Assembly: GCA_002898555.1 (NCBI GenBank)
Contig: BEHR01000011.1
Span: forward strand, 1,229-65,228
Source of the DNA: a bacterium HR15
GTDB lineage: Bacteria; Armatimonadota; Fimbriimonadia; Fimbriimonadales; GBS-DC
Direction: 5' to 3'
Length of the DNA stretch: 64,000 nt
Part shown: positions 38,609-60,647 of the stretch, piece after piece
Numbering within the stretch: position 1 is the stretch's first letter
Layout of the letters: every line of letters starts with the position of its first letter
Program-made: the position numbers and the translations under genes
The notes under the pieces: generated by a model
Databases searched by the model: none
The model's input: only the letters and a program-made list of their open reading frames with translations
Told to the model about the DNA's origin: nothing

Positions 38609-38657
38609 CAGAATTTTTTCTCTGGTGTACCCATGCGGGTTGGAGAAGAAAATTCTG
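38609..38657. repeat. degenerate copy (copy 1) of the nested palindromic intergenic repeat family
   Basis: cagaattttttctctggtgtaccc...gggttggagaagaaaattctg; the arms are imperfectly complementary. Confidence 0.6.
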
Positions 38658-38794
38658 GGGTAAGGAATGCTCTCTATCATCCCCCGCAGGGTGGGGAATT
38701 TTGCTCCTGCAAAGATAGACGCTCGACGCTTTTGCGGTGCTTCATAGGACTAAAGTCCCTTGCATGCCGCCTATTTTGCGAGATACCATGCCAC

Positions 38795-41521
38795 ATGGAG
38801 ATGCTTGCGCGTGTCGAATGTGCTACAATAGAGCGTGGTACCAAAGAGGGTCGCGGCGTGGATGTAAGCGGTGCGTGGACAGGGGAAGCCCCTCGTGGGG
38901 TCATCACACTGGTGTTTACCGACATCCAGAGCTACTCCGAGATGTCGGAGCGTTATCGGGGCGCGTTCCGTTCCCTGCTGGAACAGCACAACGCGCTGCT
39001 GCGTGCGCTCTGCCGTCAATATGGGGGCTACGAGGTGAAGGCATGGGGCGATGCCTTCTTTTTCGCGTTTGGCAGCGCGGAAGAGGCAGCACGATTCGCC
39101 TTGCACGCGCAGCACGCCATCCTCAACACTTCTTGGCAGCTCACCTTAACGGATGGCTCCATCGAGCAAGTGCCCCTGCGGATTCGAATCGGCATGCACA
39201 CAGGCGAGCCGGAACCGATTCTTCATCCTGATGGCACAGTGGACTATGTGGGTCCCGATGTGAATCGCGCGTCGCGCGTCTGCGCAGCTGCCCATGGGGG
39301 GCAGATTCTGCTCTCCTCTGCCACGCATGCGCTGGTGATGAACGCGCTGGGCAACACGGTGCAGTTTCGCAATCTCGGTCAATACTGGTTGAAGGGGGTG
39401 GGGCGCGAACGGCTTTGGCAGATGTGGCAGCAGGAGCTGCCCGCAACCTTCCCACCGCCGAATGCGCCCCGTGCCGAGCTGCATAATCTCACGGTGGCAG
39501 AGACACCCCTCGTGGGACGCGAGCGTGAGGTGGAGGAACTCGCAGCGCTGGTATTACGCCCCAACCATATGCTGATTACGCTGGTGGGCCCCAGCGGAGT
39601 GGGCAAGACACGGCTGGCGCAGGCAGTCGCGGAAGCGCTGTTAGAACATTTCGCCGACGGCGTATGGTTCGTGCCATTGGATGGCTTAACTACTCCGGAA
39701 GCGGTTGCCCAACGCATTATTCAGGAGCTACCGATGCAGCTCCGCGCGGACACCGACCCTCTCCAGCAGCTCGTGGAATATGCGCATGGGCGCACCATGT
39801 TGCTCGTGTTGGACGGCATCGAGTCGACCGCCGCGGTCACTGAGGTGGTGCGTGCTCTTATTCAAGGGGCGGTGGGGCTGCGCTTACTTGTAGCCAGTCT
39901 GAATCCGTTGCACCTGCGTGTGGAACATCTGTACGAGGTGAAACCGCTCAATGTGCCGCCTCCATCCGCGGACCGCGACCCGATGCTGCTGGAGCGTTAC
40001 GGCGCAGTGCAGTTGCTGCTAATAGGGGCGCGTCGCCATGCGCCCGATTTTGAAATCACGCCGACGAACGCCTCCGCTATTGCCGAGCTGTGCCGCCAGC
40101 TGGACGGGTTGCCCCTCGCGCTGGAGTTGACCGCTGCCCGCCTTGCCTTGCTTTCACCGACGGAGCTGCTCAAACGCCTCGATGAGCGTTTCCAGATTTT
40201 GCAGACACGCAATCCCGACATGCCACCGCGCCAGCGCGCGCTCCAAAGCGCGATTGAATGGTCCTATGGTCAGTTAGACGCCCCCATACGTGCCTTCTTT
40301 GAGCAACTCAGTGTGTTCAGCGGCAGCTTTTCGGTGGAGGATGTGGAGGCGATTTGTGAATCGGCAAGTCCCATCGATGATCTGCTGGAGCTGCACCAGC
40401 GTGCCATGCTTATCGAGATCCATCACAAGGATGAGCGTCGCTTCCGCCTGTTGAACCCGATGCGTCTTTTCGCGCTCGGCATGCTGCGTGAGAAACCTGA
40501 GATGGATGCCAAGATTCGCCAGCGCCATGCGGAATATTTCCTGCAGGTGGCAAGGGCTTGCCTCGCGCAAGTGCGCACACCCTTCGAGAACGAGGCGATG
40601 CGCCTGGCAGAGCTGCAGATGGACAATATGCGCGCCGCGATGGAGTGGTTCACCCGGCAGGGCGATTGGGCACGACGAGCGGAGATTGCGCTCCGGCTCT
40701 CCCAGCTGTGTGATCGGCTCGGCTGGCTGCTGAAGGCAACCACCTACCTACAAGACGCGCTCGATTCCGCGCTCTTTCTGGACGAGGCACAAATGGAACT
40801 GTTGACCGAACTGACCTTACAACGCGCCGCGCTTCAGTATGAACAGCACCACTGGGAGGATGCCCTGCAAACCGCGCAGGACGCGCTCGCTCGCTACGAA
40901 TCGCTCGGCTCCTTACCGGGGCAGGCGCGGTCGCATAACCTCATCGGGCTGATCCTGCTTCGGGTGTCGCGCTTCGATGAAGCCTATACGCATTTCCAGC
41001 GTGCCTTGCAGGGATTCATGCAGGCAAACGAGCCAGTATGGGTTGCTCTGGCACTAAATAACTTGGGATTATTGGAATATGAACGCGGCAGGTTCGACGA
41101 AGCGACGCGCTTTCTGCAGCAGGCGGCGCAAAGACAACGCACCTTAGGCGACATGCGCGGACTCTCTGAAACTTTGAACAACCTGGGCGCGGTTCACCAA
41201 CTCCAAGGAAACACTGCCGCCGCGCTGCGATACTTTTCCGAATCGCTGGAGTATGAGGCCCAAATCGGCAACCGATTGGGTATCGCGCGTGGACTGTGCA
41301 ATCTGGGGGAAGTGCTGATGCTGCAGGGGGAAACGCTTCCTGCAGCGCGCCATCTGCTTGCCGCGATGCAGCTGTTTCAGCAGTACGGTTCACCAGACTA
41401 CGACTACGCGCTCGCGCTCTACCAACGGCTGATGTTAGATGAGGACACAGACGCTCGGCTCCAAACCGAATGCCAGAACCGCGCGTTGGAGGATTTGCTG
41501 CAATGGGCGCGAATCTTATAA
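38795..41521 (+). CDS. class III adenylate/guanylate cyclase fused to a STAND/AAA NTPase and C-terminal TPR array
   Basis: Cyclase motifs VFTDI, KAWGDAFFFAF, IGMHTGE and GPDVNRASRV. Walker A GPSGVGKTRLA. Multiple TPRs (NNLGLLEY..., NNLGAVHQ...). Start taken at ATG 38795; the ORF is open from 38507. Confidence 0.85.
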   Translation: MEMLARVECATIERGTKEGRGVDVSGAWTGEAPRGVITLVFTDIQSYSEMSERYRGAFRSLLEQHNALLRALCRQYGGYEVKAWGDAFFFAFGSAEEAARFALHAQHAILNTSWQLTLTDGSIEQVPLRIRIGMHTGEPEPILHPDGTVDYVGPDVNRASRVCAAAHGGQILLSSATHALVMNALGNTVQFRNLGQYWLKGVGRERLWQMWQQELPATFPPPNAPRAELHNLTVAETPLVGREREVEELAALVLRPNHMLITLVGPSGVGKTRLAQAVAEALLEHFADGVWFVPLDGLTTPEAVAQRIIQELPMQLRADTDPLQQLVEYAHGRTMLLVLDGIESTAAVTEVVRALIQGAVGLRLLVASLNPLHLRVEHLYEVKPLNVPPPSADRDPMLLERYGAVQLLLIGARRHAPDFEITPTNASAIAELCRQLDGLPLALELTAARLALLSPTELLKRLDERFQILQTRNPDMPPRQRALQSAIEWSYGQLDAPIRAFFEQLSVFSGSFSVEDVEAICESASPIDDLLELHQRAMLIEIHHKDERRFRLLNPMRLFALGMLREKPEMDAKIRQRHAEYFLQVARACLAQVRTPFENEAMRLAELQMDNMRAAMEWFTRQGDWARRAEIALRLSQLCDRLGWLLKATTYLQDALDSALFLDEAQMELLTELTLQRAALQYEQHHWEDALQTAQDALARYESLGSLPGQARSHNLIGLILLRVSRFDEAYTHFQRALQGFMQANEPVWVALALNNLGLLEYERGRFDEATRFLQQAAQRQRTLGDMRGLSETLNNLGAVHQLQGNTAAALRYFSESLEYEAQIGNRLGIARGLCNLGEVLMLQGETLPAARHLLAAMQLFQQYGSPDYDYALALYQRLMLDEDTDARLQTECQNRALEDLLQWARIL

Positions 41522-41533
41522 CAAGGCGGACAC

Positions 41534-41584
41534 CTCGGAGAAGAAAAATTTTGAGCGAAGCAGGGTCAGAGAAAAAATTTCAGT
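41534..41584. repeat. half copy (right arms only, copy 2) of the palindromic repeat family
   Basis: tcggagaagaaaaattttgagcgaagcagggtcagagaaaaaatttcag, starting 13 nt after the stop of the cyclase gene. Confidence 0.75.
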
Positions 41585-41614
41585 GGCTGCCATTAGTCGC
41601 TGGAGGAGTTCAGA

Positions 41615-44600
41615 ATGAGGAAATACTTGGTGATCGGGTTCCTGTTGATGGTGTCCATGCGGATAACGGGGCAGGCGCAGACTCGTGCCCACCCCGAGGT
41701 GGATGCCTTGATTCGCAAAGCGCTTGAAGCACGCCAGCAAGACCGCTGGCAGGATGCGCTGAGCTACTATCAGCAAGCCGTTGAGCGCGCGCGCACTCTG
41801 AATGACCGTGCTGGCGAAGCCAGCGCGTGGCATAACCTTGGGGTCGCGCAGATTCTCATGTCGCGTCCGCAGGATGCCCTCAACAGCCTGGAAAGGGCAC
41901 TCCCTATCTGGCGCGAAATCGGCAACCGCATGGGGGAAGCGAACACGCTGCACAATCTGGGCACTGCCTACGCCAATCTCGGCAGGGCACGCGAAGCACT
42001 TAACACCTATCAGCAAGCGCTGCAACTGCGCCAGCAATTAGGTCATCAAGCAGGTGTTGCGCTCACCTTGCAGGGCATCGGCTCCGTCTACTACGCCTTG
42101 CGCGAGTTGCCAACTGCCCAGCGCTACTTCGAACAGGCACTCGCCCTCTATCGCGAGCTGGGGAACAAGCAAGGTGAAGCCGAAACGCTGCGCTATCTCG
42201 GCAATATTCTGTATGTGAGTGGGCAGTGGCAGAAGGCGCTCGCGGTTTACGAAAACGCGCTCGCCCTGTTCCGCGAGACGAATGACTCCGAAGGGGAAGC
42301 GACCACTTTGGCGGGCATGGGCGCGCTCTTCCTGGACATGGGTCAGCCCGAACTGGCGTTAGGCTACTACCAGCAGACGCTCGAACTACATCAGAAGGGG
42401 GGCAAGCGACGCGAGGTCATCGCCGCCCAGTTAGGCATCGGGCACATCTATGCGACTATGGGTGAGATGGAGCAGGCGAAAAAAGCGTATGAGCAGGCGC
42501 TTGCCCTCAGCCGTGAAGCGAATGATAAACGCGCGGAAGCCGCTGCCCTGATCGCGCTCGCCACCGTCGAAACACGACTCCAGACCAGCCGTCCTGCTCA
42601 AGCCAGCGAGGGAACCGTTGAAGGAGTCAGCCGCGCTGAATCGCTCTATCGGCAGGCGATTCTCGTCACGCAGGCGACAGGCGATCAACTGGGTCAAGCC
42701 AATGCCTTGCAACAGTTGGGCACGCACTATGCGATTCTCAACCGCGCGGAGGAGGCGATCCGCTGCTTCGAGAAGTCCCTCGCGCTGTATCGCGAGGCAG
42801 GCGATCGGCGCGGCGAGATGATCGCGCTTTCCAATCTGGGCGCGGTCTATGCCGCTCGTGGCGAAAAGACAAAAGCGGCTGACTACTATCAGCAGGCGGT
42901 CAACCTCGCCGAAGCGATGCGCGAAGCGCTGGGCAGCCTCGCAGAAGGGAAGCTGGCATTTCAAGAGAATCGCCACGCGCTCTACGCCCGCTATATCAGC
43001 CTGCTATTGAGCTTGAACCGTCTCGAGGAAGCCTTTGCCGTCGCGCAGAAAGCGAAGGCGCGTGCTTTGACCGATCTGATGAGCGAAGGGCGAGTCAACC
43101 TCGCCTCGCACCTGCCCCCAGAGGAGCGTGAACAGGAGCGGCTGCTGCGCTATCGGCTCGATCGTGCCACCCAGAGCTTCCTTGCTGTCCGCGCAGACCC
43201 AGATGCCGACCCCGCTCTCGTTGCCCAATGGCGTGAAACCGTGCAGCAAGCCGAACGGGAATGGCAGGCGTTTATGGATAGCCTCTCTGCACGCTACCCT
43301 GCGCTGACGCGCCAGCAAGGAATACGCCCCGTGACGCTGGAACAGATCGCGCAAAGCCTACCCTCGGATGCTGCCCTGCTGGAATACCTGCTGCTTCAAC
43401 CCTCTGCACAAGCAGAGAAGAGCTATCTCCTTCTGTTCTGCTTGACGAACGAGGGAGGCAAGCCGCGCCTCAGTGCGCATTTGACCCCCCTGGGCGACAA
43501 ACCCCTTGCGGAGCGCACCGAATCGTTCGTGCTGACCTGTGCCGTGCCGAACGCACCGTATAAAGAGGAGGCACGCGCTATGTACCGCCTGCTTATCGGT
43601 CCCGTCGAAGCACGCATTGCTGGCAAGAAACGACTGATTATCTGCCCCGACAGCACCCTCTGGGATGTCCCCTTCCAGGCATTATGGAGCGATAAGGGCT
43701 TTCTGCTGGAGCAATACGAACTGACCTACGCGCCCAGCGCCACGGTTGCCATGCTACTGCGCGAATTGCGGTCCGTGCCGAATCGCCCTCGCCCAACACG
43801 CGAGCTACTGTTGGTGGCGAACCCACAGTTTGGCATGTTGACGCTGGCATCCGCGAACGAAAATCGTCCGCTGACAGCAGGCTCCCGTCCCTTGACCACA
43901 GGCGCACGCCCATTAACGACAGGCTCTCGCCCCCTAACGACAGGGGCGCGCCCGCTAACCACAGGCGCACGCCCACTGACGACGGGGGCACGCCCGCTGA
44001 CCACAGGCGCACGCCCACTGACCACAGGTGCACGCGACATTACGGGCGAATATCTGGCGGAAGTGGGTATTCGTGTCACCCCCTTGCCCGGCACGGAGCG
44101 TGAAGCCCAACAGATTGCTGCACTGTTCCCCGAAGCCACTTTGCTGACCAAAGCCGAAGCCCAGGAGGCAACCCTGAAGTCGATCATGGGGCAATATCGC
44201 TATCTGCACCTTGCCACGCATGGCTACTTCAGTGATGTGGCGCCTCTGCAAAGCGGGGTGCTGCTGGCGGAGCCACCTGCCGATGCCAGCGAGGATGGCA
44301 TTCTGACTGCACGCGAGTTGATGGAATTACCCCTGAGCGCGGAGATGGTGGTGCTATCCGCTTGTGAAAGCGCACGAGGGCGGGCGCGACCTGGTGAAGG
44401 CGCGATAGGGATGGTCTGGGCGCTGACGGTGAGCGGCATCCCCACGCAGGTGTTGAGCCAGTGGAAGGTGAGCGATGAAAGCACAGCGCTGCTGATGACC
44501 CGCTACTATCAAGAATTGAAAGCGGGCCGGTCGCCTGCAAGCGCCCTGCGCGAAGCTGCGCTCGCCGTGAAACAAGATACCCGCTTCCAACACCCCTACT

Positions 44601-44635
44601 ACTGGTCTCCCTTCATCTGCATTAGCAGCTGGTGA
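41615..44635 (+). CDS. exported TPR-repeat protein with C-terminal CHAT (caspase-like) protease domain
   Basis: Signal MRKYLVIGFLLMVSMRITGQA. About 12 TPRs (WHNLGVA, LHNLGTAY...). CHAT catalytic dyad context LHLATHGYF and VVLSACESARG. Confidence 0.85.
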   Translation: MRKYLVIGFLLMVSMRITGQAQTRAHPEVDALIRKALEARQQDRWQDALSYYQQAVERARTLNDRAGEASAWHNLGVAQILMSRPQDALNSLERALPIWREIGNRMGEANTLHNLGTAYANLGRAREALNTYQQALQLRQQLGHQAGVALTLQGIGSVYYALRELPTAQRYFEQALALYRELGNKQGEAETLRYLGNILYVSGQWQKALAVYENALALFRETNDSEGEATTLAGMGALFLDMGQPELALGYYQQTLELHQKGGKRREVIAAQLGIGHIYATMGEMEQAKKAYEQALALSREANDKRAEAAALIALATVETRLQTSRPAQASEGTVEGVSRAESLYRQAILVTQATGDQLGQANALQQLGTHYAILNRAEEAIRCFEKSLALYREAGDRRGEMIALSNLGAVYAARGEKTKAADYYQQAVNLAEAMREALGSLAEGKLAFQENRHALYARYISLLLSLNRLEEAFAVAQKAKARALTDLMSEGRVNLASHLPPEEREQERLLRYRLDRATQSFLAVRADPDADPALVAQWRETVQQAEREWQAFMDSLSARYPALTRQQGIRPVTLEQIAQSLPSDAALLEYLLLQPSAQAEKSYLLLFCLTNEGGKPRLSAHLTPLGDKPLAERTESFVLTCAVPNAPYKEEARAMYRLLIGPVEARIAGKKRLIICPDSTLWDVPFQALWSDKGFLLEQYELTYAPSATVAMLLRELRSVPNRPRPTRELLLVANPQFGMLTLASANENRPLTAGSRPLTTGARPLTTGSRPLTTGARPLTTGARPLTTGARPLTTGARPLTTGARDITGEYLAEVGIRVTPLPGTEREAQQIAALFPEATLLTKAEAQEATLKSIMGQYRYLHLATHGYFSDVAPLQSGVLLAEPPADASEDGILTARELMELPLSAEMVVLSACESARGRARPGEGAIGMVWALTVSGIPTQVLSQWKVSDESTALLMTRYYQELKAGRSPASALREAALAVKQDTRFQHPYYWSPFICISSW
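43865..44032 (+). repeat. eight tandem 21-nt coding repeats (RPLTTGA heptads) inside the CHAT protein
   Basis: Units start at 43865, 43886, 43907, 43928, 43949, 43970, 43991 and 44012. The peptide is conserved while third codon positions vary. Confidence 0.9.
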
Positions 44636-44789
44636 AATTTTTTCTCTGGGGTACTCAGCGAAGTGGGTCAGAGAAAAAATTTCAGGGGAAATTTTTTCTC
44701 TGGGGTACTCCAAAATTTTCTTCTCCGGGGTACCCAGATGGGTCGGAAAAGAAAATTTTGCTCGAAGCGGGTCAGAGAAAACATTTCAG
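44634..44789. repeat. compound copy (copy 3) of the nested palindromic repeat family
   Basis: A short hairpin (aaattttttctctggggtactc / gggtcagagaaaaaattt) is followed by a full two-level nested unit. The element overlaps the CHAT gene stop codon. Confidence 0.85.
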
Positions 44790-47653: not shown

Positions 47654-50053
47654 TTATTGACCCCCGCCCGAAGCGCCGTTAATTGCCCATTGCCCCCCTG
47701 AAGGTATGCTGGCTATCCACTTTAGCGAGTCCTCAACAAGGGCATACTCACTCCATATCCCCCCTTTTTGTTCCTTCCGCCTCTCAACGGAAGGTGGTAA
47801 TTGTGTCATGGCAATTGCCACAAACTCGAGCCCTTCGGATTCCAGCATAAGATGCATTTGCGAACTTCTCCTTCCATCCAGCCGTTCCAGAGCCTCGTGC
47901 AACGGGGGAGAGCGGCGTTTTGGATAGAGCATGGATTTCCCACGCAGATCATCCCATCCGAGCAGAGGCTCACGCTTGCCATTTGCTGTATCACACTGGT
48001 ATACCTGCACCCAACAAGGTTGGTTTGCAAATACGGTAAGGATGATATTTTTATCTCTTAAAGGAACAATTTTTACATAAACCTTAAGTTTCCCACCTTG
48101 CTCGAAAAGCGGAAGTGCATTTAAGCTATTCAACAAAGCAAGCCAGTGTCTAATTCGCTCGCTCCGGTCGTCGGATTGGTTATCAGGAGGGTGAGGAGTG
48201 GGCGTGGGAGGAGGGCTGGAGGAGCTTGTCTTAAGGGGTTTCAGCAGCGCATCTATTCTGAGTTGTCCTCCTGCTCGAACTGACCGGTGTGTCTCATAGT
48301 TTTCATAACCATCCAATTTGAGTAAAATGGCGACCTCTTTCTTTCCGGAGGGCAACTCATGGAAGCCCTCATAGGGTGTCACGCCCACTGCCTGACCATC
48401 CAAGTAAACAGTAGCTCCAGGGGGCTTGCTGGATACTGATAGGCTGTATTCAGGTCGATATGGTACTGGTCTCCCCAGTTTCACTGGTGGTGGAGGTAGA
48501 CCCGATCTCACCTTGGCACGCCCGGAACTCTGATGACCACGAATATCGGAGCGTGCAATAATTTCTAAGGTTGCCTCACTGCCCTTTTCCACTTGTCCCG
48601 TCAAGTCAAAGGATACTATAGGCTGTGTTGGATGTCCTCCCGAAAGGGAAACCTTTTTAGGTCCCTCCTTACAGGGCGCTCCATTGATTCTGGCTTCAAC
48701 CGTAACCTCGGTATCTTCTTTTGGCCATCCTGCAGGTAAATGCACAGGAACCTCAAGCCTTTCTCTGCGTGGAATCGTGACAATGACCAGCGGAGGAACC
48801 ACTCCTGGTTCCGCTGGGTCTACCATCCAGTTGGGGTCTACCTGAAGCTGCTCTAAGTCATAGGGCTTTAATTTTGCGGACACATGCCCCGTTTGATCTC
48901 GTTTTGGGTCGGGTTCTATCTTAAGACTGAGGGGCAGGGCGGTCCACAAAAATCGTAAACCCCTTTTTTCCCACGGCCATCGCTTGTAGAATTCTACGCC
49001 CGTGCGTGTCCCATCAGTGTAGAGGCGATACAAACATGGATATGGGCGCTTAATACCTTTGGTATCGGTTATCTCTACTGTAACCTTTAAATCACGCGGC
49101 ATCAGTCCAGGAGGCAATTGTCCCTCCGGTAAGCCTTCGAAATGCAGGCGTATACGTGCCTCAGGGCGATAAATAGGGGGGAAACCAAATAGAATCCCTA
49201 TAAGTAGCATTAGAACCACACCCGCAATTATCCAATCTGGCCACCAAGTTTTTAGAAAAGGCATAGGCACTATATGAATATGTCGCTCCATTTGACGCCG
49301 AATGCGCTCGCCATTGGCACGCACGGTTGCCTCCACTACGGGCAGCACACGCAAAGGCTCTTGCAAGCGTTGCTCCAGTGGCATTCGGCATACAACGCTC
49401 TGCCGCTGCCATCCATCTAGCCTCCCCATGTCCAGCACTTGCTCCCCACCGTCATCTAAGGGGAGCGGCTTGCCTTTATTATCTAGAATGTTCAGTCGAA
49501 GTTGAGCGTCGACAGGCAAATAGCTGTGATTTGTAACAGAAACCTCTATTCGCACTGTTCGATGCCATGGACGAGCTAATACAATTTTCGGATGGACATC
49601 TATCTTAATCGATTGAGCATTGACCGGTGGCACGAGCTGATACTCTTTGAGGAAATAAATCTCTCCTTGCCCTGTAGTATCGGGGATCCAATATTCCGTT
49701 ACAACGATCTCGAAGGGGCAAGGGGTAGTGCGTGGATGTTCGGGATCACTTACCAAGAGAAGAGTGAAACCACGACTCTCGTTGCTGCCCAACTCGATCA
49801 ATTCATCAGTGCTTACTACTTCGAGGTTGGAGTAAAGTGAGTATTCAGTAGGGTATAGATTCGTAACAACGACTTGATACCATCGTGGATAGTTTGTGCT
49901 ATTGGAAATAGAAAACTCGATACACTGCCCTGGCAGAACTATATACTCGCTTGACTCCTCCACAGCAAGCGAGCCATGCCGCGCCTCACCTTCTGGTGAT
50001 GGTGGTCTTAGAGTTTGATGTTCCCGAACAACCCACTGCGCTTTCCCGAACAT
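47654..50053 (-). CDS. single-pass membrane protein (799 aa): beta-rich cytoplasmic N-domain, one TM, PEGA domain, P/S/T linker, DUF4384-like C-terminus
   Basis: TM WWPDWIIAGVVLMLLIGILFGF. PEGA-like SSKPPGATVYLDGQAVGVTPYEG...LKLDGYENYE. Linker SSSSPPPTPTPHPP. Last gene of the low-GC operon. Confidence 0.7.
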   Translation of the reverse strand: MFGKAQWVVREHQTLRPPSPEGEARHGSLAVEESSEYIVLPGQCIEFSISNSTNYPRWYQVVVTNLYPTEYSLYSNLEVVSTDELIELGSNESRGFTLLLVSDPEHPRTTPCPFEIVVTEYWIPDTTGQGEIYFLKEYQLVPPVNAQSIKIDVHPKIVLARPWHRTVRIEVSVTNHSYLPVDAQLRLNILDNKGKPLPLDDGGEQVLDMGRLDGWQRQSVVCRMPLEQRLQEPLRVLPVVEATVRANGERIRRQMERHIHIVPMPFLKTWWPDWIIAGVVLMLLIGILFGFPPIYRPEARIRLHFEGLPEGQLPPGLMPRDLKVTVEITDTKGIKRPYPCLYRLYTDGTRTGVEFYKRWPWEKRGLRFLWTALPLSLKIEPDPKRDQTGHVSAKLKPYDLEQLQVDPNWMVDPAEPGVVPPLVIVTIPRRERLEVPVHLPAGWPKEDTEVTVEARINGAPCKEGPKKVSLSGGHPTQPIVSFDLTGQVEKGSEATLEIIARSDIRGHQSSGRAKVRSGLPPPPVKLGRPVPYRPEYSLSVSSKPPGATVYLDGQAVGVTPYEGFHELPSGKKEVAILLKLDGYENYETHRSVRAGGQLRIDALLKPLKTSSSSPPPTPTPHPPDNQSDDRSERIRHWLALLNSLNALPLFEQGGKLKVYVKIVPLRDKNIILTVFANQPCWVQVYQCDTANGKREPLLGWDDLRGKSMLYPKRRSPPLHEALERLDGRRSSQMHLMLESEGLEFVAIAMTQLPPSVERRKEQKGGIWSEYALVEDSLKWIASIPSGGQWAINGASGGGQ

Positions 50054-50111
50054 GGCTTATCCCCAAAGATATAGGTTATCATACCCTAAAGATATCTTCC
50101 ACCAATTGCGC

Positions 50112-50591: not shown

Positions 50592-50606
50592 CCAAACCCT
50601 CCTTTT

Positions 50607-51710
50607 CTACTTAGCTTTGCCCACACAGTTCGGACACCGACCAGGGTCAACCTGACCTGGGCGAACTGTGTAGTACGCATTGCAGGAACATTTCCGAATT
50701 ATCAAAGAACCCTGAGAGGAGACCGGCGTCACGGGTATGAACCCAGGACTGGGTTCAGGTCTTTCGTAAGGCTGTTCTGGTTCACGCAACTCTCCATAGA
50801 GAGGAATAAGAGCTTCCATGGCTTTTTGTACGTGGTCGAGTGCGTCCCATATTTGCAACTGGGCTTCGGCACGATGCTTAATGTAGCTAATAGCGTTTTC
50901 GATTTGATCCTTTGCAGGTACCCAGCTGGCGAGCGGTGGTTGTAGGTTGGCTAATGGTAAAATCAGTTGAAAGAGAGAGACCAGCATCTCGGTCAGGCGA
51001 TTAAGCCAATCCCGTAGGTAGATCTGCCAGTCACTTATTATTGAAGCAGGGGCAAGCGCGGCAGCCATGTTCGCTGCGATTAGATGAGAAAAACCGCACC
51101 CAGACCTCGCATATTGCCCCAAAATTTGCTGTGAAGCTTGGGCAGTTTGTAGAATGGTCTTCACCTTATTGACCAGAAGCGGATGGCTATTCAAATAGAC
51201 CGACTCCGGGATATACTGATTGTCCACAACAAATCGCGCTCCCTCCTTGCGCATCTGCCCAATCTGGAGCCTGTCGTAAGCGTTCGCACTGGGTTCTGTT
51301 GTCAAGGCATAGGCCCAGCGAAGGGAACGAGCTTCCAGCAAGACAGTACTCTGAGCAGTTGTGGTTGGTACCGATTCCTTACCCCGAACCTCCAGGTAAA
51401 TCGGTACAATCGACTCTCGGTGCTGATCATTACTTCCCCTCAAGGGAGCCGGGCGGTTTGACTCGTTTACCTCTATTAGGTAACCTTGAGGACTTATTGC
51501 CCGGCATGCTTGCAGTACAATCTCATAATCGGAAGGCGACCCAGAAACGATTAGATCACCCTCTCGCATTGCGAGGACTCCCCGAGGATATGTGCTGGAA
51601 AGAACCCAGCGTATTAGCTCCTCCATATAGGCTGTCTCGCCAAATAGATGGTCAGCGTGCAGAAGCTGCACGCTGCTCCAGTCGACCGATGTAAGCTTGA
51701 ACCATGTCAA
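50607..51710 (-). CDS. TssK-like (baseplate shoulder-domain-like) protein with C-terminal CxC...CxxC zinc ribbon
   Basis: TTG start preceded by AGGAGGTG. The N-terminus VDWSSVQLLHADHLFGETAY...YPRGVLAM...LQACRAISPQGYLIEV parallels the TssK pattern W.EG.FL.PQHFQ...WGV...RFPDGTLID. C-terminus KCSCNAYYTVRPGQVDPGRCPNC. Family call is a by-eye inference. Confidence 0.5.
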   Translation of the reverse strand: MTWFKLTSVDWSSVQLLHADHLFGETAYMEELIRWVLSSTYPRGVLAMREGDLIVSGSPSDYEIVLQACRAISPQGYLIEVNESNRPAPLRGSNDQHRESIVPIYLEVRGKESVPTTTAQSTVLLEARSLRWAYALTTEPSANAYDRLQIGQMRKEGARFVVDNQYIPESVYLNSHPLLVNKVKTILQTAQASQQILGQYARSGCGFSHLIAANMAAALAPASIISDWQIYLRDWLNRLTEMLVSLFQLILPLANLQPPLASWVPAKDQIENAISYIKHRAEAQLQIWDALDHVQKAMEALIPLYGELREPEQPYERPEPSPGFIPVTPVSSQGSLIIRKCSCNAYYTVRPGQVDPGRCPNCVGKAK

Positions 51711-51774
51711 AGCATGTCACCTCCTGCATTCCACACTGCTGTGTTCTCTTTATCAGGCGTATCCCGATCATCGG

Positions 51775-53442
51775 TTATTGTACCCCCTCCAATATATCGC
51801 CCATTATGGGCGAACCACCGGCCAAGCGTGCCAAAGGCGTTTCAGCCCACTCTGCTCCATAACCCTGCGCCTCTTGGGCAAGATAGGCGGTTTCGCCAAG
51901 GATCGCCCAGTCCACTAACCATCTATAGCATATCGGCAAATGCACAGGAACAAAAAGACATGCCAAAACTTCGAGTTTCTTTTCAATCACCTCGATCCAC
52001 TCTGACGGCTGAGTGCGATCCATCGGGATATAAACTACCACTTGCGGTGAATGCAGCAGAGGGATCATGCTAACAAAAAGTGTCTGCCCGACTTGGGCAA
52101 GCGTTGTACCTAACCTACTGGGAGCAGGAGCCAGAGGTTCAATACGCACCTGGATATCGCGATGCACCAGCAGGCGTAATGCAGTCTGAAAAAGAGCGAA
52201 CCAGTCTATCAGGTGTCGCCGAAGAAGAATAAGCATTTCCAACACCACTTTTTCTTCAGGTAGAAAAAAGTTCATCGATTCCTGCTTGATACCCAAAAAA
52301 GCGTCATTATGCCACCAACTTCGCATCAGGTGTATTAAAGCGCCGCTCAGATTAAGCCCTTCGAAGATGCTACATTGTGAGGGATAAAAAGGGATATATT
52401 CTGGCAGGTAGCGGCGTACAAGTGCAAGTACCTCGTCGGGCGTCAGGTCCTCAGTACGCCCTGCCTCATACTGTTGACGAATAGCTTTGTAGACCTCCTG
52501 GACAGCTGGGTCTTGTGCTGTCCATAAAGTTTGCTCTGCTTGAGTCGGATCTCCTTGTTCATTATCTCTCGTGATGCTATCCCCCTGGCGTGGTATCCCT
52601 CTGCTTCCTTTGCCGTAGTTGAGAAATGATAATGGACGATGTGGGTAGAGATGAAGCCATTGCACCACATCCTCAACGCGGGATTGAGCACCCAAAGTCA
52701 CCGGGATGTGTCTTCCTTCGGGTTCAAAGGGAAAGAAGAATTCACAGCCCCCAAGCAGATCGGTCATGGCAACGAATAAAAAAGCGTTGGTAAAGATAAG
52801 CTCGGCAAATTCCTGTGCTAAGCGCGAATATAGAGATTCTTCTGTAAGATCTTCAGTTTCATAAAAATAAATATCTTCTTTGGATAGTTCCATAACATGT
52901 CCGTGTCGAATGAAAAGCAAGCGATCATGTGGTCGCTCGTTAGGAGGCGATGATTCGCCAAGATCGGGATACTGCTCATAGAGCTGTCGCATAAGGCACT
53001 CGACGGGAGTCTCCGCTGTGGAGAAATCCGCATGTCCTGTATGGCGATGTATATACTGCTCCCGATACCAACTTAGCATGGAAACACCAAAAGGCTTGTC
53101 TCCTTTAAGCCGTGCCAACGCTACTTCTGTGGGAGGCATGCCAAGCATGACAAGAGAGATAAAAGGAGCTAAGCGATTGTCCACCCGAACATTGACCCCT
53201 AAACGAATACGTAGATCTTTTAAACTCTGCTCAACTAAACTCTGCTTAACAAAATTGTCCACGCTCTCGCACAAGAGGTCACGATAGGGCAGGATTTCAC
53301 GGTGTGCTGGATGTCCGATAACAGGCAGGAGACGCACACCCGTCGCAGGTACCCCCATATCTGTAAGCACCTGCACCACATGCGCAAGCGAGGCGGGACC
53401 ATTCCACGAGGAGAAAGACGGTATGCGAAAGACTTTAATCAT
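51775..53442 (-). CDS. hypothetical cytoplasmic protein (555 aa), no family recognised
   Basis: ATG preceded by AAGGTGA. No TM or signal. Sits between the TssF-like and TssK-like genes. Confidence 0.6.
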   Translation of the reverse strand: MIKVFRIPSFSSWNGPASLAHVVQVLTDMGVPATGVRLLPVIGHPAHREILPYRDLLCESVDNFVKQSLVEQSLKDLRIRLGVNVRVDNRLAPFISLVMLGMPPTEVALARLKGDKPFGVSMLSWYREQYIHRHTGHADFSTAETPVECLMRQLYEQYPDLGESSPPNERPHDRLLFIRHGHVMELSKEDIYFYETEDLTEESLYSRLAQEFAELIFTNAFLFVAMTDLLGGCEFFFPFEPEGRHIPVTLGAQSRVEDVVQWLHLYPHRPLSFLNYGKGSRGIPRQGDSITRDNEQGDPTQAEQTLWTAQDPAVQEVYKAIRQQYEAGRTEDLTPDEVLALVRRYLPEYIPFYPSQCSIFEGLNLSGALIHLMRSWWHNDAFLGIKQESMNFFLPEEKVVLEMLILLRRHLIDWFALFQTALRLLVHRDIQVRIEPLAPAPSRLGTTLAQVGQTLFVSMIPLLHSPQVVVYIPMDRTQPSEWIEVIEKKLEVLACLFVPVHLPICYRWLVDWAILGETAYLAQEAQGYGAEWAETPLARLAGGSPIMGDILEGVQ

Positions 53443-53464
53443 TTTTTCACCTTCTTATAAATGA

Positions 53465-55090
53465 TCAAATCCTGGTCAGGCATCCCTCCACTTGATACCA
53501 CCCAATCATGAAATATTGGGCAATGATCGAGGCGGCATAACGCGTTGCGTCCTCCAGTAAGAAACGAGGTACATCCATGCGTCTGGGGTAAAAAACAAGG
53601 CGCATCTTGGGCATAATGGCACACCGCGAACGGGCCAGATAACCCGCACGCATCTCTAATAAGATCGTGTCACCAATCAAAGATGGATAGAGATAAGTCT
53701 CCCACACAGTTCGCTCTTCCCATGGAGCAGCTGCCACATCCAGTTGGATTGCAGTTTGATCAATATCAAACCACAATCGGCATGAAGATAAATGAGACAA
53801 TATTTCTTTTATATCACCCTCTGTCAGTAATGTAGGGCGAAAAATAGTGTGATACCAATAGTAGCGTGCGGCGTTATTATCAGGCTGACTCATTAGCAAA
53901 CTCATGCCACCTACTGCAGGCAAAGGTGTGCGGAAACGCTGCCCACCAGGACGAATGAGGTATTCAGGATGCAAGCGTCCAGGAACAGGATTTTCACCTA
54001 AGCAGGCATAATAGACCTTGATCTCGGAAACCGTTTGATCGCATATTATATCAACATCATATGGACAGCTCTCAGGCGATGATGTTCCCTCAAAGGTAGT
54101 TGCATGGGTACGAACGAAGCGTACGCGATGAATAACATCACCTGTGCGAGCAATAGCGGCAAAAAAGTTGGTTATCCCCGCAAAGCTAACTTTGTATGCA
54201 TCCCCCACGGCATGGAGGGTTGCTACCACGGGGTGATGGAGCACTCCCATCTGTGCCACAGGAATCGCGTTAATCACAAGTGGAGGCTGCACACTGTTAG
54301 AGGCCACGCGATCAGCGAGGGTTTGATCAATCAGTGCCGCAAGACGAATGAATTCATCGCTAATCCCGAGCCATTCCCACTCAGCGGAATCCGTTATGGA
54401 TGAGGAAGGAGACGGTTGATAAAAACGAAGAAACTTTCGAGAATAGGGATGGAAAGGGGGTAGCCAAGCCGCCAGATGCCATTGGGAAAGGCGGGCTACC
54501 CCCATCTCACGCTCAAATTCCAGATACCCCGTATAACGTTCCACCTTAACTACCTCAAACGATCGCCCAGGATACTGAATCGCCCACCTCGCATTCGCTA
54601 ATAAAGCGACGAGTGGCTCATCTCCCCAGACAAAGGCGAGTAATCCATTCTCCGAGAAGAGCGTTGCAATGTCCGATTCGCGGCTCTCGCACCGGAGGAT
54701 TAACACTAAAGCAACTTGCCCCTCCGTTGACCGCGTGAGTGTCCACTCGACAAGTTCTAAAGGCAGTGTCCAGCCATATCCACAGGGTGTCCAAAAAGTT
54801 CCTGTAAACGGATCCGTAAAGGTTGTTCCCATCGTAATCTCGCGATAGCGTGGTTCCTGGGGCACAGCAATTGTTTGCGCGGGAAAATGCCACTCCCCTG
54901 AAGGGAAAAACTGTTCCATAAAGCGAAGCAGCGTTCTTTGCTCTGCCTCAGCAATCTGTTCAGCAATCGCTGTCTTCCAAGCAGCGAGCATTCCTAAAAA
55001 AGGAGCATATTTGCTTATTTCTGACTCCACTCGCTGACGCACTGTTGGATCCATCTGATCCAATATCTCTTTCTCGTCGTATCTGTTCAC
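53465..55090 (-). CDS. TssF-like (gp6-like baseplate wedge) protein
   Basis: GTG start preceded by GGAGG. DPTVRQRVES resembles TssF DPHVERLIES, and RTLLRFMEQFFPSGEWHFPAQTIAVPQEP resembles TssF LLGQLFPDYHAPIPSMSIVQFE. The size is compatible (541 aa). By-eye inference. Confidence 0.45.
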   Translation of the reverse strand: MNRYDEKEILDQMDPTVRQRVESEISKYAPFLGMLAAWKTAIAEQIAEAEQRTLLRFMEQFFPSGEWHFPAQTIAVPQEPRYREITMGTTFTDPFTGTFWTPCGYGWTLPLELVEWTLTRSTEGQVALVLILRCESRESDIATLFSENGLLAFVWGDEPLVALLANARWAIQYPGRSFEVVKVERYTGYLEFEREMGVARLSQWHLAAWLPPFHPYSRKFLRFYQPSPSSSITDSAEWEWLGISDEFIRLAALIDQTLADRVASNSVQPPLVINAIPVAQMGVLHHPVVATLHAVGDAYKVSFAGITNFFAAIARTGDVIHRVRFVRTHATTFEGTSSPESCPYDVDIICDQTVSEIKVYYACLGENPVPGRLHPEYLIRPGGQRFRTPLPAVGGMSLLMSQPDNNAARYYWYHTIFRPTLLTEGDIKEILSHLSSCRLWFDIDQTAIQLDVAAAPWEERTVWETYLYPSLIGDTILLEMRAGYLARSRCAIMPKMRLVFYPRRMDVPRFLLEDATRYAASIIAQYFMIGWYQVEGCLTRI

Positions 55091-55192
55091 CGTCTGCCTC
55101 CGTTAGCGAATAATCTTTAGAAGCTTTGCCCACCAGATTCCGACTTTGAGTCGCCTATTTCCCATTATACCTGCGAATACTCTATTCCCAGT

Positions 55193-55650
55193 CTAAGTGG
55201 GGGTGAGTAGGGTCTGCAGCCAATCACGGAGTTGTCTCGCTTGTGTTCCTATGCCACCTGCTGTGCATCCAAGGGTTGTGCCTGGGGGAACCCAAAGGGT
55301 TGTCGGTTGGAGCACCTCCCGATAGAGTCGTCCCATTGCGAGAAAGATTTCACCATAGGGTATGGTTTCCATACGCCTTTGGAGGGCTGCTATCACCCGA
55401 GGCGACAGCTGTTGCGCACGCGCTCGATCCATCTTGCGGTTATAGTACGGGATGGGTGTGGCAGCTTCTATTAGACCAAATTCTGACGAGAGCAGAAGAA
55501 TGTCCACGGACCGAACTTGCGCTGGCGATGCTTGCTGCAACCATCGACGCACGATGCGATAGAATACCCATCACAGCGCTCTATCGCGGGTAGCAGACCC
55601 GCGTCCACGCGCTTCTGTGCGGAGCATGCCAGTATCAGCAGATGCTTCAT
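55193..55650 (-). pseudogene. DUF6884-like gene interrupted by a frameshift near 55567-55569
   Basis: ATG 55650 preceded by GGAGG. MKHLLILACSAQKR...LPAIERCDG (frame A) continues sensibly only in another frame as (V)FYRIVRRWLQQ...DILLLSSEFGLIEAATPIPYYNRKM. A G3 run lies at the junction. Confidence 0.55.
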
Positions 55651-55728
55651 TGCAATACCTCCTCGAGCGCAACACGAGCAGTTATTTCGGGAGCGAATGG
55701 TCCGCCACCGAGTAGACTTTGACAATGG

Positions 55729-56613
55729 CTAACGAACAATCTCACAGGACCATGGGACGGTGATTTCCGTACGACCTGCCTTTAATATAAGCCTGCCCTG
55801 AAACTTACCAGTTGCTTTGGGGGCAGGAATGAACTCAACACCCAGGATAAGGGTATTTTGCTGTCGATCAATGGAGCGTACCAGAAACTGTCCAGCCATC
55901 GTATGAGGATTGACCAGCTGCACTTTCGTATATTGATCGGCAATATAATTAGAGTCAAAAATAATTTTTAGATATCTAATAACCCGTTTTTCTTTTGAAA
56001 TGATTCCCAACCCCAGTGATGAAGGCAAGGTTTGTACAGGGCTGCATGGCTCTATATTGACATTGATTGTTTTTATTATACTATCTTTAAGTTTTACTAT
56101 AATTTTTCCATATCTAAAAGTTTTATATTTAATTACTTTGATTTTCAAAGCTCTCGATTTTCGATCGATACTCAAAATTATTCCTGGTATATTCGATAAA
56201 ATTCTTATATCGTTCAAATCAATTGAATTGCAGAAATTAAAAAAGAGTATATTTTTATGATCACATTTTATGTGAAGATAATTGGGCGCATTGAGCAAGC
56301 AATTTATCTGTTTACCGGAAAGTTTAGCAACCAAGATAGCTTTCTTTTGATTATCAGTTTCAACTTCGACCCAGAAGGTGTCCTGAATGGGCTTTTCCTG
56401 TATTCCCTCCCAATGTGGTGGTAAATCGAGGCGCGCTTTTACATGGAGCGTTCCACCAGGAGGTACGATTCGAGGAGCATAGCTATAAGTTGCCTGCGTA
56501 TTTGGTAAAGGTGCCACATGGCCTGGGTTCATAGTCACATACAGAGCCAGGGGCTGGACGGCATCGTGGATACCGGACACGGTTCGACACAAACTCCTCA
56601 CAAATCGTGCCAC
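55729..56613 (-). CDS. beta-rich (Ig-like/DUF1573-like?) protein with an extremely AT-rich central coding segment
   Basis: ORF of 294 aa. An alternative start at ATG 56532 is possible. It overlaps the upstream Cys-rich ORF by 50-131 nt. C-terminus GKFQGRLILKAGRTEITVPWSCEIV. Confidence 0.5.
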   Translation of the reverse strand: MARFVRSLCRTVSGIHDAVQPLALYVTMNPGHVAPLPNTQATYSYAPRIVPPGGTLHVKARLDLPPHWEGIQEKPIQDTFWVEVETDNQKKAILVAKLSGKQINCLLNAPNYLHIKCDHKNILFFNFCNSIDLNDIRILSNIPGIILSIDRKSRALKIKVIKYKTFRYGKIIVKLKDSIIKTINVNIEPCSPVQTLPSSLGLGIISKEKRVIRYLKIIFDSNYIADQYTKVQLVNPHTMAGQFLVRSIDRQQNTLILGVEFIPAPKATGKFQGRLILKAGRTEITVPWSCEIVR

Positions 56614-56899
56614 AGAAAGTAACTCTACCTATTCTAATACATCCAGAAAAGCACCGGCAAGGGATATCTTGGCAGCTCGCTATAAGCCAAGGCGTGCATT
56701 TCTGATCGTTGACTCGGATAGGATTTGGCTTAGTGGCACATGGTTTGACAGACGCAACAACTACTTCATCGGGCGCTGTTGCCAGGCCACAAGCGTCTTT
56801 CTCAGAGGATATACCTACGCCAATTGGCACCCAACTGAGCAGGATGCCGACTACAACCCTCAAGCCAATGCTCCAGCACGACAAACCGATTTTGCGCAT
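56483..56899 (-). CDS. small exported/anchored Cys-rich protein (139 aa)
   Basis: ATG 56899 preceded by GGAGGTGG. Hydrophobic N-terminus LSCWSIGLRVVVGILLSWVPIGVG. At least 14 Cys residues. Confidence 0.55.
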   Translation of the reverse strand: MRKIGLSCWSIGLRVVVGILLSWVPIGVGISSEKDACGLATAPDEVVVASVKPCATKPNPIRVNDQKCTPWLIASCQDIPCRCFSGCIRIGRVTFCGTICEEFVSNRVRYPRCRPAPGSVCDYEPRPCGTFTKYAGNL

Positions 56900-57007
56900 C
56901 TTTTGTCCACCTCCATTTAAAAATAACGCTCCCATCGTTCCTTTGGGGACATCATAGTACCATCTCCGAGTGGATGCTTACTTTTTTCTGCCAATGCTCC
57001 CGCATAA

Positions 57008-57544
57008 CTACGAGCAACTCTCTGTCTGTAGAGGATAGACCACCGCCGAAATTACCCCCCCACTTTGTACCCAGTTCTGGAGTTTCTTGATGGCTCGCTG
57101 ACAAGTCTTCTTGACATTCTCTTTAGAGTGGCCATCGCCTATCTGTCGCGCGATGACGGAAAACGATAGGCCTTCCAAGTAATGAAGTATCACAATCAAT
57201 CGCTCTCGCTCCGAAAGCCGAGCAAGTGCTTGCTCCAGCATCAAACGCTGCTCTACCTGCTCATAGCCCATCTCGTCCATGGCGTATTCTGTACCCAGCT
57301 CCTCCAGCGACACCGTGGCAGGTTTGCGTTTGCGACGGCGCAGATAGTCGTTTTTTACACTTTGACAGACACGGTGAAGGTAGGCACGTGTAACTGCTTG
57401 CTGGCGTTGCTGACAGCGCAATAGGCGCAGCAGGACATCTTGGATCATGTCCTCTATGCAGTTAGCATCCCGTTCATGTTGCAGGAACCAACGCCGTGCT
57501 TCATTATACCATTCGCTTTCTTTAAGCAAGTCACGCTCCTCCAT
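57008..57544 (-). CDS. ECF-type sigma-70 family RNA polymerase sigma factor
   Basis: Region 2 (IQDVLLRLLRC...YLHRVCQSVKNDYLRRR) and region 4 (LSERERLIVILHYLEGLSFSVIARQIG...VKKTCQRAIKKL). The ORF extension to 57820 is just translation of the palindromic repeat. Confidence 0.8.
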   Translation of the reverse strand: MEERDLLKESEWYNEARRWFLQHERDANCIEDMIQDVLLRLLRCQQRQQAVTRAYLHRVCQSVKNDYLRRRKRKPATVSLEELGTEYAMDEMGYEQVEQRLMLEQALARLSERERLIVILHYLEGLSFSVIARQIGDGHSKENVKKTCQRAIKKLQNWVQSGGVISAVVYPLQTESCS

Positions 57545-57671
57545 GGCGCGCTCCTCCTCAAAAAGAGGATTCGCCTTGCTCGAGGCGATTCCTGCATGGT
57601 GTGTGGTTGCTTCATGCCATAATAAAAGGGGCGTGATGGGATGAGACTGCCCGCAACGCCGCCCGATGCTG

Positions 57672-57826
57672 CAGAATTTGCTTCTTCGGGGTAGCCCAAA
57701 ATTTTTTCTCTGGGGTACTCCAAAATTTTCTTCTCCGGGGTACCCATCTGGGTCGGAGAAGAAAATTTTGAGCGCAGCGGGGTCAGAGAAAAAATTTTGC
57801 CGTCTGACTCGGAGAAGCAAATTCTG
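57672..57826. repeat. full three-level nested palindromic repeat (copy 4) between the ECF sigma gene and ppdK
   Basis: Perfect stems 57672-57685/57813-57826 (14 bp), 57697-57712/57784-57799 (16 bp) and 57721-57737/57754-57770 (17 bp). A GGGTACCC palindrome sits at the apex. Confidence 0.9.
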
Positions 57827-57841
57827 GAGGAGGTTGGAAGA

Positions 57842-60514: not shown

Positions 60515-60520
60515 CACCCA

Positions 60521-60647
60521 TGAAATTTTTTCTTCGGGGTAGCCCAAAATTTTTTCTCTGGGGTACCCAAAATTTTCTTTTCCGGGGTACCCTGTTGGGT
60601 CGGAGAAGAAGATTTTGAGCGCGGCGAGGTCAGAGAAAAAATTTCAG
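60521..60647. repeat. nested palindromic repeat (copy 5), 7 nt after the ppdK stop
   Basis: Three tandem left units (…TTTTTTCTTCGGGGTAGCC, CAAAATTTTTTCTCTGGGGTACC, CAAAATTTTCTTTTCCGGGGTACCC) and two right units (GGGTCGGAGAAGAAGATTTTG, GGTCAGAGAAAAAATTTCAG). Confidence 0.9.

Follow-up and report, generated by a model that had tools for sequence, protein, structure and literature searches.

Nested palindromic repeats of a Fimbriimonadales bacterium, a probable family of miniature mobile hairpins

A stretch of 64,000 nucleotides from contig BEHR01000011.1 of bacterium HR15 (assembly GCA_002898555.1, positions 1,229 to 65,228 of the forward strand) carries short palindromic repeats at six loci. 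This whole stretch is referred to here as the window, and positions are counted from its first letter. Its host lineage, the Fimbriimonadales (Armatimonadota), is known from metagenomes. According to Pfam, the genes next to the repeats encode a C11 peptidase (minus strand), an adenylate cyclase-NB-ARC-TPR protein (cyclase-STAND), a TPR-CHAT protein and an M1 peptidase (all plus strand). Further neighbours are a low-GC operon on the minus strand with a sigma factor at its head, and ppdK, PP2C, miaA, purF and dnaA, all on the plus strand. All loci lie in spacers and end 13-50 nt ahead of the next plus-strand start codon. The repeats most probably form a lineage-specific family of miniature non-coding palindromic mobile elements of the Fimbriimonadales. 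As judged from the corresponding sites of close relatives, the copies have probably been gained and are not an ancient structure.

Five of the loci had been reported in a first-pass annotation, and each carries the sequence described there; a partial copy at 29396-29433 is the sixth. A scan with the right-arm motif GGGTCRGAGAARAAAATTT, allowing up to 3 mismatches, gave 10 right-arm matches, against 0.02 expected from 100 shuffles. All of them are on the plus strand, as are the ten left-arm units listed below, in agreement with the single orientation that had been noted. The literal 23-nt consensus of that annotation has zero matches even with 3 mismatches, because the main arm subtypes differ by one base in length. 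Independently, a repeat finder recovered the direct-repeat families D2-D4, D7 and D9. Family D2 is a core of about 102 nt common to 44686, 57696 and 60543. The annotation had called this core of its third, fourth and fifth copies nearly identical; the core is indeed common to them, at a measured identity of 81-82%.

38611, 44635, 44689, 44712, 57673, 57697, 57722, 60523, 60545 and 60569, plus strand: left-arm units

The basic unit is a hairpin of 48-54 nt, in which the whole unit is one palindrome. Removal of the nested parts leaves ten simple units, which were aligned over 55 columns. The left arm of 17 nt consists of C(A/T)GAAATTTT, then a pyrimidine run ending in G ((T/C)...CTCYG), and the right arm is its purine-rich complement. 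The termini C(A/T)GAAATTT and AAATTTC(A/T)G are present in ten of the ten units. The apex is asymmetric: an unpaired GGGT comes first, then ACCC and GGGT with 4-8 variable bases between them, and this asymmetry gives the unit its polarity. Within the alignment, 94.2% of the cells are paired, and both sides have changed in 7 pairs (20 cells). The covariation score is 0.305, compared to 0.170 in shuffles, and was reached by 0 of 500 of these; when the partners are slid by 1-3 columns, pairing falls to 36-64%. The hairpin is maintained through compensatory changes. At least three arm subtypes (O, A and B) can be distinguished, with left and right arms matched within each subtype:

Subtype A: left arm TTTTTTCTCTG, right arm CAGAGAAAAAA
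Subtype B: left arm TTTTCTTCTCCG, right arm CGGAGAAGAAAA
Subtype O: left arm CAGAATTTGCTTCTTCG, right arm CGGAGAAGCAAATTCTG

With these subtypes, the loci can be described as follows, where A(B) stands for a B unit inside an A unit and bit scores are those of the covariance model (CM):

29396-29433, plus strand: partial copy upstream of purF; apex mini-hairpin (ACCC...GGGT) and B-type right arm GGGTCGGAGGAAAAGATTTTG, without left arm
38609-38657, plus strand: simple 49-nt hairpin unit with termini CAGAATTT...AAATTCTG; -20.2 kcal/mol; CM 55 bits, E 2.6e-11
41534-41583, plus strand: right half of an A(B) composite (family D7); B right arm 41534-41553, linker AGCGAAGCA, A right arm 41563-41583
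44632-44685, plus strand: simple A-type unit with uninterrupted apex (GGGTACTCAGCGAAGTGGGT); -22.8 kcal/mol; 69 bits
44686-44789, plus strand: composite A(B); A left arm 44686-44710, B unit 44711-44760 (72.5 bits), linker and A right arm 44761-44789
57672-57826, plus strand: triple nest O(A(B)); O left arm 57672-57696, A left arm 57697-57720, B unit 57721-57770 (76 bits), linker and A right arm 57771-57799, spacer and O right arm 57800-57826
60521-60647, plus strand: compound locus (-55 kcal/mol; 68.8 bits); solo O-like left arm 60521-60544, then A(B) with A left arm 60545-60567, B unit 60568-60617, linker and A right arm 60618-60647

The arms of the 38609 unit are chimeric, A-like on the left and B-like on the right, and the unit sits where the C11 peptidase and cyclase-STAND genes diverge, in the spacer between them. 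The left arms are missing from the half copy at 41534, which starts 12 nt past the stop codon of the cyclase-STAND gene (41519-21). At 44632 the element terminus cTGAAATTT itself supplies the TGA stop (44633-35) of the TPR-CHAT gene, and the composite that follows, in which GGGGTACTC of the A apex precedes the inner B unit, reaches to 13 nt from the M1 peptidase start codon. The triple nest at 57672 is situated in the 5′ untranslated region (UTR) of ppdK and ends 1 nt before the ribosome-binding site GGAGGAGG. The 60521 locus fills the spacer between ppdK (stop codon at 60512-14) and PP2C. The distances of 0-12 nt at which copies follow the stop codons of the cyclase-STAND, CHAT and ppdK genes are as the annotation had stated. 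Apart from the family, the leader of the cyclase-STAND gene holds a short G+C-rich hairpin at 38680-38697 (CCCCGCAGGGTGGGG, then AATTTTGC), 25 nt downstream of the 38609 element, which is flagged by a terminator scan.

The loci differ in their degree of nesting, which reaches three levels where O contains A and A contains B. The A apex is unbroken at 44632-44685, with GGGTACTC directly joined to AGCGAAGTGGGT, and is split at this very point by a B unit at 44686, 57697 and 60545; the 41534 half copy keeps the right-hand junction only (B right arm, linker, A right arm). In the 57672 and 60521 loci, what precedes the A(B) composite is GGGGTAGCC of an O-type arm. The orientation of an inner unit is always that of its host, and its place is always directly after GGGGTAS(Y)C. 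The compound loci are, from these junctions, best read as whole units inserted in the apex of other units. Identity is 90-94% among the B units and 82-91% among their A hosts, which, small as the numbers are, would fit with B as the youngest layer. The composites at 57 and 60 kb may have been copied as one block. This touches on a quite improbable alternative, in which the repeats spread without any dedicated enzyme, by recombination, gene conversion or template switching between palindromes, or by block duplication in a rearrangement-prone region. In its favour are the constant nesting order and the composites at 57696 and 60543, which are equally similar in their A and B parts. However, arms match their own-level partners and differ between nesting levels, which is not expected from local duplication.

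Folding of the copies on both strands, a check named in the first-pass annotation, gives stable hairpins on both. The region 57660-57840 folds into three concentric stems, at -87 kcal/mol (z = -8.3) on the plus strand and -72.5 kcal/mol (z = -7.1) on the minus strand; the nested stems described at this locus are thereby confirmed, although they are near-perfect rather than perfect. The remaining loci fold alike on both strands. The fold energy is better on the plus strand at most window loci, and on the other strand at 44686 and in a copy within the queE gene of a related organism, which is described below. Counts of G.T versus A.C mismatches, as a measure of strand asymmetry of wobble, are 10 versus 6. 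B units are free of stop codons in six of six frames, compared to a shuffle mean of about 2.2 (P<=0.001), and the queE unit is open in five of six.

Stable stems at the 3′ ends of genes, with A-runs and T-runs at the feet of the stems, recall intrinsic, possibly bidirectional, transcription terminators, a role that the annotation had put forward. The terminator scan calls none of the elements. The T-run belongs to the stem, where it is paired with the A-run, and is parted from the G+C-rich stem by AAAA. In addition, one copy lies in a 5′ UTR and one in a coding sequence, and genes downstream of copies have spacers of 13-30 nt in which no promoter of their own is visible. The terminator role is thus dropped as very improbable.

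Evidence for mobility comes from relatives. Homologues of ppdK with 85-94% identity carry the labels Armatimonadota or Fimbriimonadales. The relatives compared, ordered by ppdK identity, are L051 (94%), L043 (93%), L044-L046 (92%) and L047 (87%), with about 110 kb around ppdK in total. No unit was found in this sequence by a mismatch-tolerant scan for the arm motifs or by covariance model R1 (E<=10). The ppdK-PP2C spacer measures 154 nt in the window, versus 2 nt in L043 (TAGccATG) and 26 nt in L051. The 21 nt past the 60521 element correspond by homology to the spacer of L051, which makes the element itself an insertion of about 127 nt. A 7-bp target-site duplication, CCATGAA at 60518 and 60667, was considered at this locus and dropped, because L051 has both the right copy and the 21-nt tail too, as native sequence. 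Upstream of ppdK, homology stops at ...CCGCCCGAYGCTG; beyond this point lie the element in the window, a hairpin of GCGARTR heptads in L043 and L051, and neither of the two in L047. Orthologous sites are hence empty in close relatives, which is the outcome of a genome comparison that the first-pass annotation had also suggested.

57615-57623, plus strand: extended -10 box TGcCATAAT, outside the element, conserved in relatives with 87-94% ppdK identity (L043, L047 and L051)

This box, a putative promoter element of ppdK, lies upstream of the 57672 element, which places the element inside the ppdK transcript, in the 5′ UTR. The annotation had seen this copy as the mark of the right border of the low-GC operon; this is correct, and its location is more exactly the ppdK 5′ UTR past the conserved -10 box. 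Some ppdK proteins of Fimbriimonadales (P0068, P0098, P0100 and P0102) have 1311 amino acids and an intein domain (PF14528), which the window ppdK does not have, and the RtcB gene adjoining ppdK in the 92% relatives (L044-L046, 4925-7900) contains an intein as well.

The heptads belong to a second palindromic family, with 7-nt units GCGARTR (e.g., AGCGAGTGGCGAGTAGCGAGTGGCGAATGGCGAGCG pairing with ACTACTCGCTGCTCACTACTCGCCACT). Its sites are 29358-29398, 29436-29449 and 26270-26300 in the window, 255-345 and the 3′ end in L051, and 5640-5690 in L043. In L043 and L051, the GCGARTR hairpin takes the same point of the ppdK 5′ UTR as the AAAATTTT element of the window, and this UTR looks like a hot spot for hairpin repeats, as far as these sequences go. 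The partial copy at 29396-29433 sits between pieces of the GCGARTR family, and its solo arm at 29413 is thereby flanked on both sides, where the 11 nt CGCTACTCACC recur as a direct repeat. Another GCGARTR copy is found directly upstream of dnaA.

On a larger scale, the cluster of glycerate kinase, RDD and C11 peptidase genes lies about 3.4 kb from ppdK in L047 (1-10000), versus 19 kb in the window. The intervening 19 kb of the window hold the cyclase-STAND, TPR-CHAT and M1 peptidase genes, a sugar-phosphate isomerase gene and the low-GC operon. The position of this cluster near ppdK in L047 marks 38.6-57.8 kb of the window as lineage-specific. At its two borders, in direct orientation, stand the units at 38609 and 57672, which alone have CAGAATT...AATTCTG (O-type) termini. 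This also speaks for spread without an enzyme: of the six loci, five are inside the 19-kb segment that is missing in L047 or at its edges, and the two O-type units are direct repeats that flank it.

The low-GC operon itself (47654-57550, minus strand) has a GC content of 0.43-0.51, compared to about 0.60 around it. An ECF-like sigma factor is encoded at its head (57008-57550), and its other members include a PEGA-domain protein, a protein with a weak TssK/VasE-like match and a DUF6884 protein; most members have no match in Pfam, PHROGs or PADLOC. As it is missing from the fetched ppdK neighbourhoods of the relatives, the operon was probably acquired horizontally.

Outside the window, an exact 22-mer search of JGI metagenomes identified one real copy, on contig Ga0105160_1006747 (L040, GC 0.59). 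The copy is located within queE, where it is in frame and runs antisense to the gene. In comparison with the insert-free queE gene of bacterium HR15, found like the window in the DRR10136x samples, the L040 gene contains an exact insertion of 48 nt, CAAAATTTTTTCTCTGGGGTACCCGATTGGGTCAGAGAAAAAATTTCG in element orientation, with zero duplicated bases. The insert adds 16 amino acids, which are missing in 10 of 10 QueE homologues with 50-86% identity to the carrier, that of HR15 among them, and in QueE of B. subtilis. All six QueE variants at 97-100% identity (JGI, Logan, ENA) retain the insert in a full frame of 251 amino acids, and the terminus of three of them has the consensus sequence AAAATTTTG. 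In the AlphaFold model of the protein, which is confident as a whole (predicted TM score 0.80), the insert falls within a low-confidence, disordered loop (residues 43-69). Judging from the conserved frame and this model, the insertion is tolerated and the gene intact. The flanks of the queE insert show no homology to the window loci. A clean insertion of 48 nt, at an unrelated locus and in another organism, speaks against spread by recombination or duplication alone.

With these data, a host function of the repeats as regulatory RNA can be weighed as well. The hairpins would then be intercistronic stabilisers or processing sites, or 5′ UTR structures that set the relative expression of neighbouring genes. 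A precedent is the malE-malF mRNA, in which a repetitive extragenic palindromic (REP) sequence acts as an intercistronic stabiliser. The spacers that hold the six window loci are probably all transcribed, and each locus has the orientation of its downstream gene; the folds are very stable, pairing is preserved by compensatory change, and the 57672 copy is located past a conserved -10 box. On the other hand, the hairpins are missing at the same junctions of relatives with 87-94% ppdK identity, one of which has a ppdK-PP2C spacer of just 2 nt, and the queE copy is within a coding sequence and antisense. Moreover, both strands fold nearly equally well, the counts of G.T and A.C mismatches single out no RNA-sense strand, and half copies persist. 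This explanation is therefore considered unlikely, though less so than the other alternatives. Relatives do without the family, so neither a role in mRNA structure nor one in protein binding, both of which the annotation had listed, can explain its existence. Co-option of individual copies as mRNA structures is possible.

Imperfect palindromes of 50-155 nt after successive genes of the same strand, in one orientation, also bring to mind the attC sites that separate the gene cassettes of integrons. The termini C(A/T)GAAATTT do not contain the core sites RYYYAAC and GTTRRRY, and Pfam detects no integrase in the window. Besides, the flanked genes are about 3 kb long or are core genes (ppdK, purF), the units are nested, and one of them is in frame inside queE. 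Hence an attC-like nature is the least credible of the explanations considered.

The search for further copies included several collections. Viral contigs, plasmids and phages gave no real match; four viral matches to the right arm have no left arm. The six-frame translation of the element found nothing in a protein database at E<=0.001. In Rfam nothing reached the gathering score, and only sub-threshold look-alikes of microRNA precursors were returned at E<1. No repeat family of such kind in Armatimonadota was met in Rfam or in the full-text literature that was searched. Exact matches to the ppdK, purF, dapF and M1-peptidase proteins are confined to short Logan contigs (DRR101361, DRR101362, DRR101364) and one ENA contig, and each Logan contig examined around the elements starts or ends inside one. 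These breaks were considered as a sign of many more copies and rejected as such, since the 32-35 nt that are identical between window copies suffice to break assemblies at k=31. At an empty site, the following join would be expected:

Expected empty-site join: ...GATAAATAACACCCA to GTCAGATAGG...

Several observations weigh against the family being mobile. Firstly, the window contains no transposase or recombinase gene, according to a Pfam search of its proteins. Secondly, the exact 19-mer AAATTTTTTCTYYGGGGTA gave 35 single matches among the GTDB species representatives, which do not include the source genome; these are in unrelated, mostly A+T-rich taxa and are taken as chance matches, their flanks not having been examined. 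Thirdly, edge proteins and the HR15 queE contig extended the sequence available for this organism by about 18 kb, in which no copy occurs, and the samples that carry the organism, three or four in number (including DRR101361, DRR101362 and DRR101364), showed no presence/absence polymorphism; their contigs break inside elements. At the level of single loci, the queE insertion is the only one resolved to the base, and upstream of ppdK the element replaces about 100 nt instead of forming a clean insertion. The constant order O>A>B could mean that composites were copied as blocks, with few independent nesting events. Lastly, one polarity is shared by six out of six loci (two-sided p of about 0.03): it equals the direction of the genes in the window, yet the queE copy is antisense to its gene.

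If the repeats are mobile, as is considered most probable, a trans-acting enzyme would recognise the folded hairpin and insert copies without staggered cuts. Candidates are enzymes of the HUH/Y1 type (IS200/IS605- or RAYT-like) or recombinases like those of IS110/IS1111; the absence of a target-site duplication argues against a DDE transposase and for an enzyme of the HUH/Y1 or IS110 type. Insertion would prefer the tips of hairpins or sites that contain GGTAC, and existing copies would serve as new targets, from which nested hairpins result. Copies would last where they do little harm, i.e., in transcribed spacers between genes of the same direction, in a 5′ UTR, or, when in frame, in a surface loop of QueE, and the near absence of stop codons in six frames would help them to persist. 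Any effect on the stability or processing of mRNA would be a by-product. GGTAC or its complement GTACC occurs at a distance of 2 nt from the junction in queE and of about 5 nt from the one estimated in the L051 spacer, compared to a background of about 1 per kb; a preference for GGTAC as target is a post hoc and weak suggestion from these sites.

A more speculative extension, which is tentative at best, sees the unit as a self-targeting hairpin transposon. The apex GGTAC with 1-2 further nt would be the insertion site of the enzyme, without duplication, so that each copy is itself a landing pad. The unit would have been shaped to be stop-free in six frames, and a HUH/RAYT-like or an IS110/bridge-type recombinase would act on a substrate of 48 nt. 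If true, it would be among the smallest complete mobile units. With its clean insertion, its self-nesting and its survival in frame in a radical-SAM enzyme, a unit of 48 nt would be a compact natural substrate for finding the recombinase and for studying the target choice of hairpin elements. There are practical consequences as well. The repeats break short-read assemblies of this lineage, create false extensions of open reading frames (ENFGVPQRKNFGLP and the like) and coincide with breaks in gene order around ppdK, for which reason masking is advised for annotators of these metagenome-assembled genomes. If individual copies alter the fate of mRNAs, this would explain lineage-specific differences in the expression of ppdK and the neighbouring STAND and CHAT genes.

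Other features of the window include further tandem repeats. A 33-nt unit TCGGCTCGGCAGGAGCCTCGCCCTCCAAGGATT is repeated four times at 30909-31037 and encodes LEGEAPAEPKS x4, the C-terminus of a protein of 1162 amino acids without Pfam match (30901-34389, minus strand). Three Logan contigs end in this repeat and the L048 sequence ends in a similar GGAGAGCGAGCCTCC motif; from these contig ends, the repeat may be present in multiple copies in the genome. In the TPR-CHAT gene, a 21-nt tandem repeat at 43865-44065 (about 7-9 copies) gives the protein a (RPLTTGA)n stretch, located between its TPR and CHAT parts. Repeats of about 46 nt, paired at a spacing of 81-84 nt, occur in two genes (884-1010 and 4958-5087) and encode a dockerin-like motif (VDDADLLxVLFxFG). 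Upstream of the dnaA gene (26293-27759) are about 200 nt of spacer, which include a TATAAT-like box. The replication origin was considered as a possible reason for the shared polarity of the repeats. GC skew shows neither a switch nor a cumulative minimum at dnaA (26.3 kb), and the window has no clear sign of a replication origin. PADLOC and PHROGs yielded nothing informative on the genes next to the repeats.

Among known elements, the family can first be compared to REP sequences and the BIMEs and REPINs built from them. These are mobilised by RAYT transposases and consist of units of 20-40 nt with a GTAG/CGTC tag, paired in opposite orientation (PMC3733652, PMC3116915). Like them, the repeats of the window are short palindromes that are found mainly between genes of the same direction and 3′ of coding regions, with three loci 0-12 nt past plus-strand stop codons, are plausibly transcribed and are occasionally intragenic. 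REP elements are likewise thought to be non-autonomous mobile DNA that inserts without duplication. In contrast to them, the window units are 48-54 nt long, have no sequence similarity and carry no unpaired GTAG or CGTC tag at either end, GTAG being confined to the apex of two O-type arms. Moreover, their clusters are nested in one orientation, without pairs in opposite orientation.

Bacterial MITEs (miniature transposable elements with inverted repeats), such as Correia/NEMIS, ERIC, Chunjie and Nezha (PMC10969869), are similarly small and non-coding, with terminal inverted repeats (here the 17-nt arms) that form hairpins in transcripts. They share with the present family the insertion in operons without breakage and the restriction to certain lineages. 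Unlike DDE-derived MITEs, the family shows no target-site duplication at queE, the sole site resolved to the base, nor at the nested junctions. Furthermore, the whole unit is here one palindrome, at about 50 nt it is at the lower size limit of MITEs, and no parental insertion sequence is known, plasmids, phages and viral contigs having given no match to the repeats. The annotation had proposed REP/BIME- or MITE-like elements. This stands in the sense of a dispersed element, given the empty orthologous sites and the queE copy, but not as strict membership, for which the GTAG/CGTC tag, inverted dimers and a target-site duplication are all lacking.

The palindromic elements of Rickettsia (RPEs) are about 100-150 bp long with a large share of intragenic copies, and the QMITEs of Coxiella are comparable (PMC10969869, PMC5896051). 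With these, the family has in common that palindromes are inserted in frame in protein genes and kept in apparently functional proteins, the reading frame being open through the element. It differs from RPEs in that one of seven known loci is intragenic, in its 48-nt unit, in its Armatimonadota host and in its unrelated sequence without Rfam match. Cyanobacterial small dispersed repeats (SDRs; Elhai and colleagues, 2008) are reportedly very small mobile repeats that nest and also occur inside genes, and the HIP1 motif has reportedly been proposed as the insertion site of SDR5. SDRs are reported in Nostocaceae only (PMC5861425). The family resembles SDRs in behaviour, though not in membership, by its nesting up to three deep and its one intragenic copy. 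In both cases, a short palindromic motif is the proposed insertion site (HIP1 for SDR5, GGTAC here) and the mobilising enzyme is identified for neither. SDRs are reportedly shorter, have unrelated sequences and occur in Nostocaceae instead of an Armatimonadota host. Overall, the repeats are closest in behaviour to REP/REPIN, MITE, RPE/QMITE and SDR elements and by the tested features are a member of none of these. The family is thus new while the kind of element is familiar, and its uncommon traits are the self-nesting and a coding-compatible unit of 48 nt that inserts without target-site duplication.

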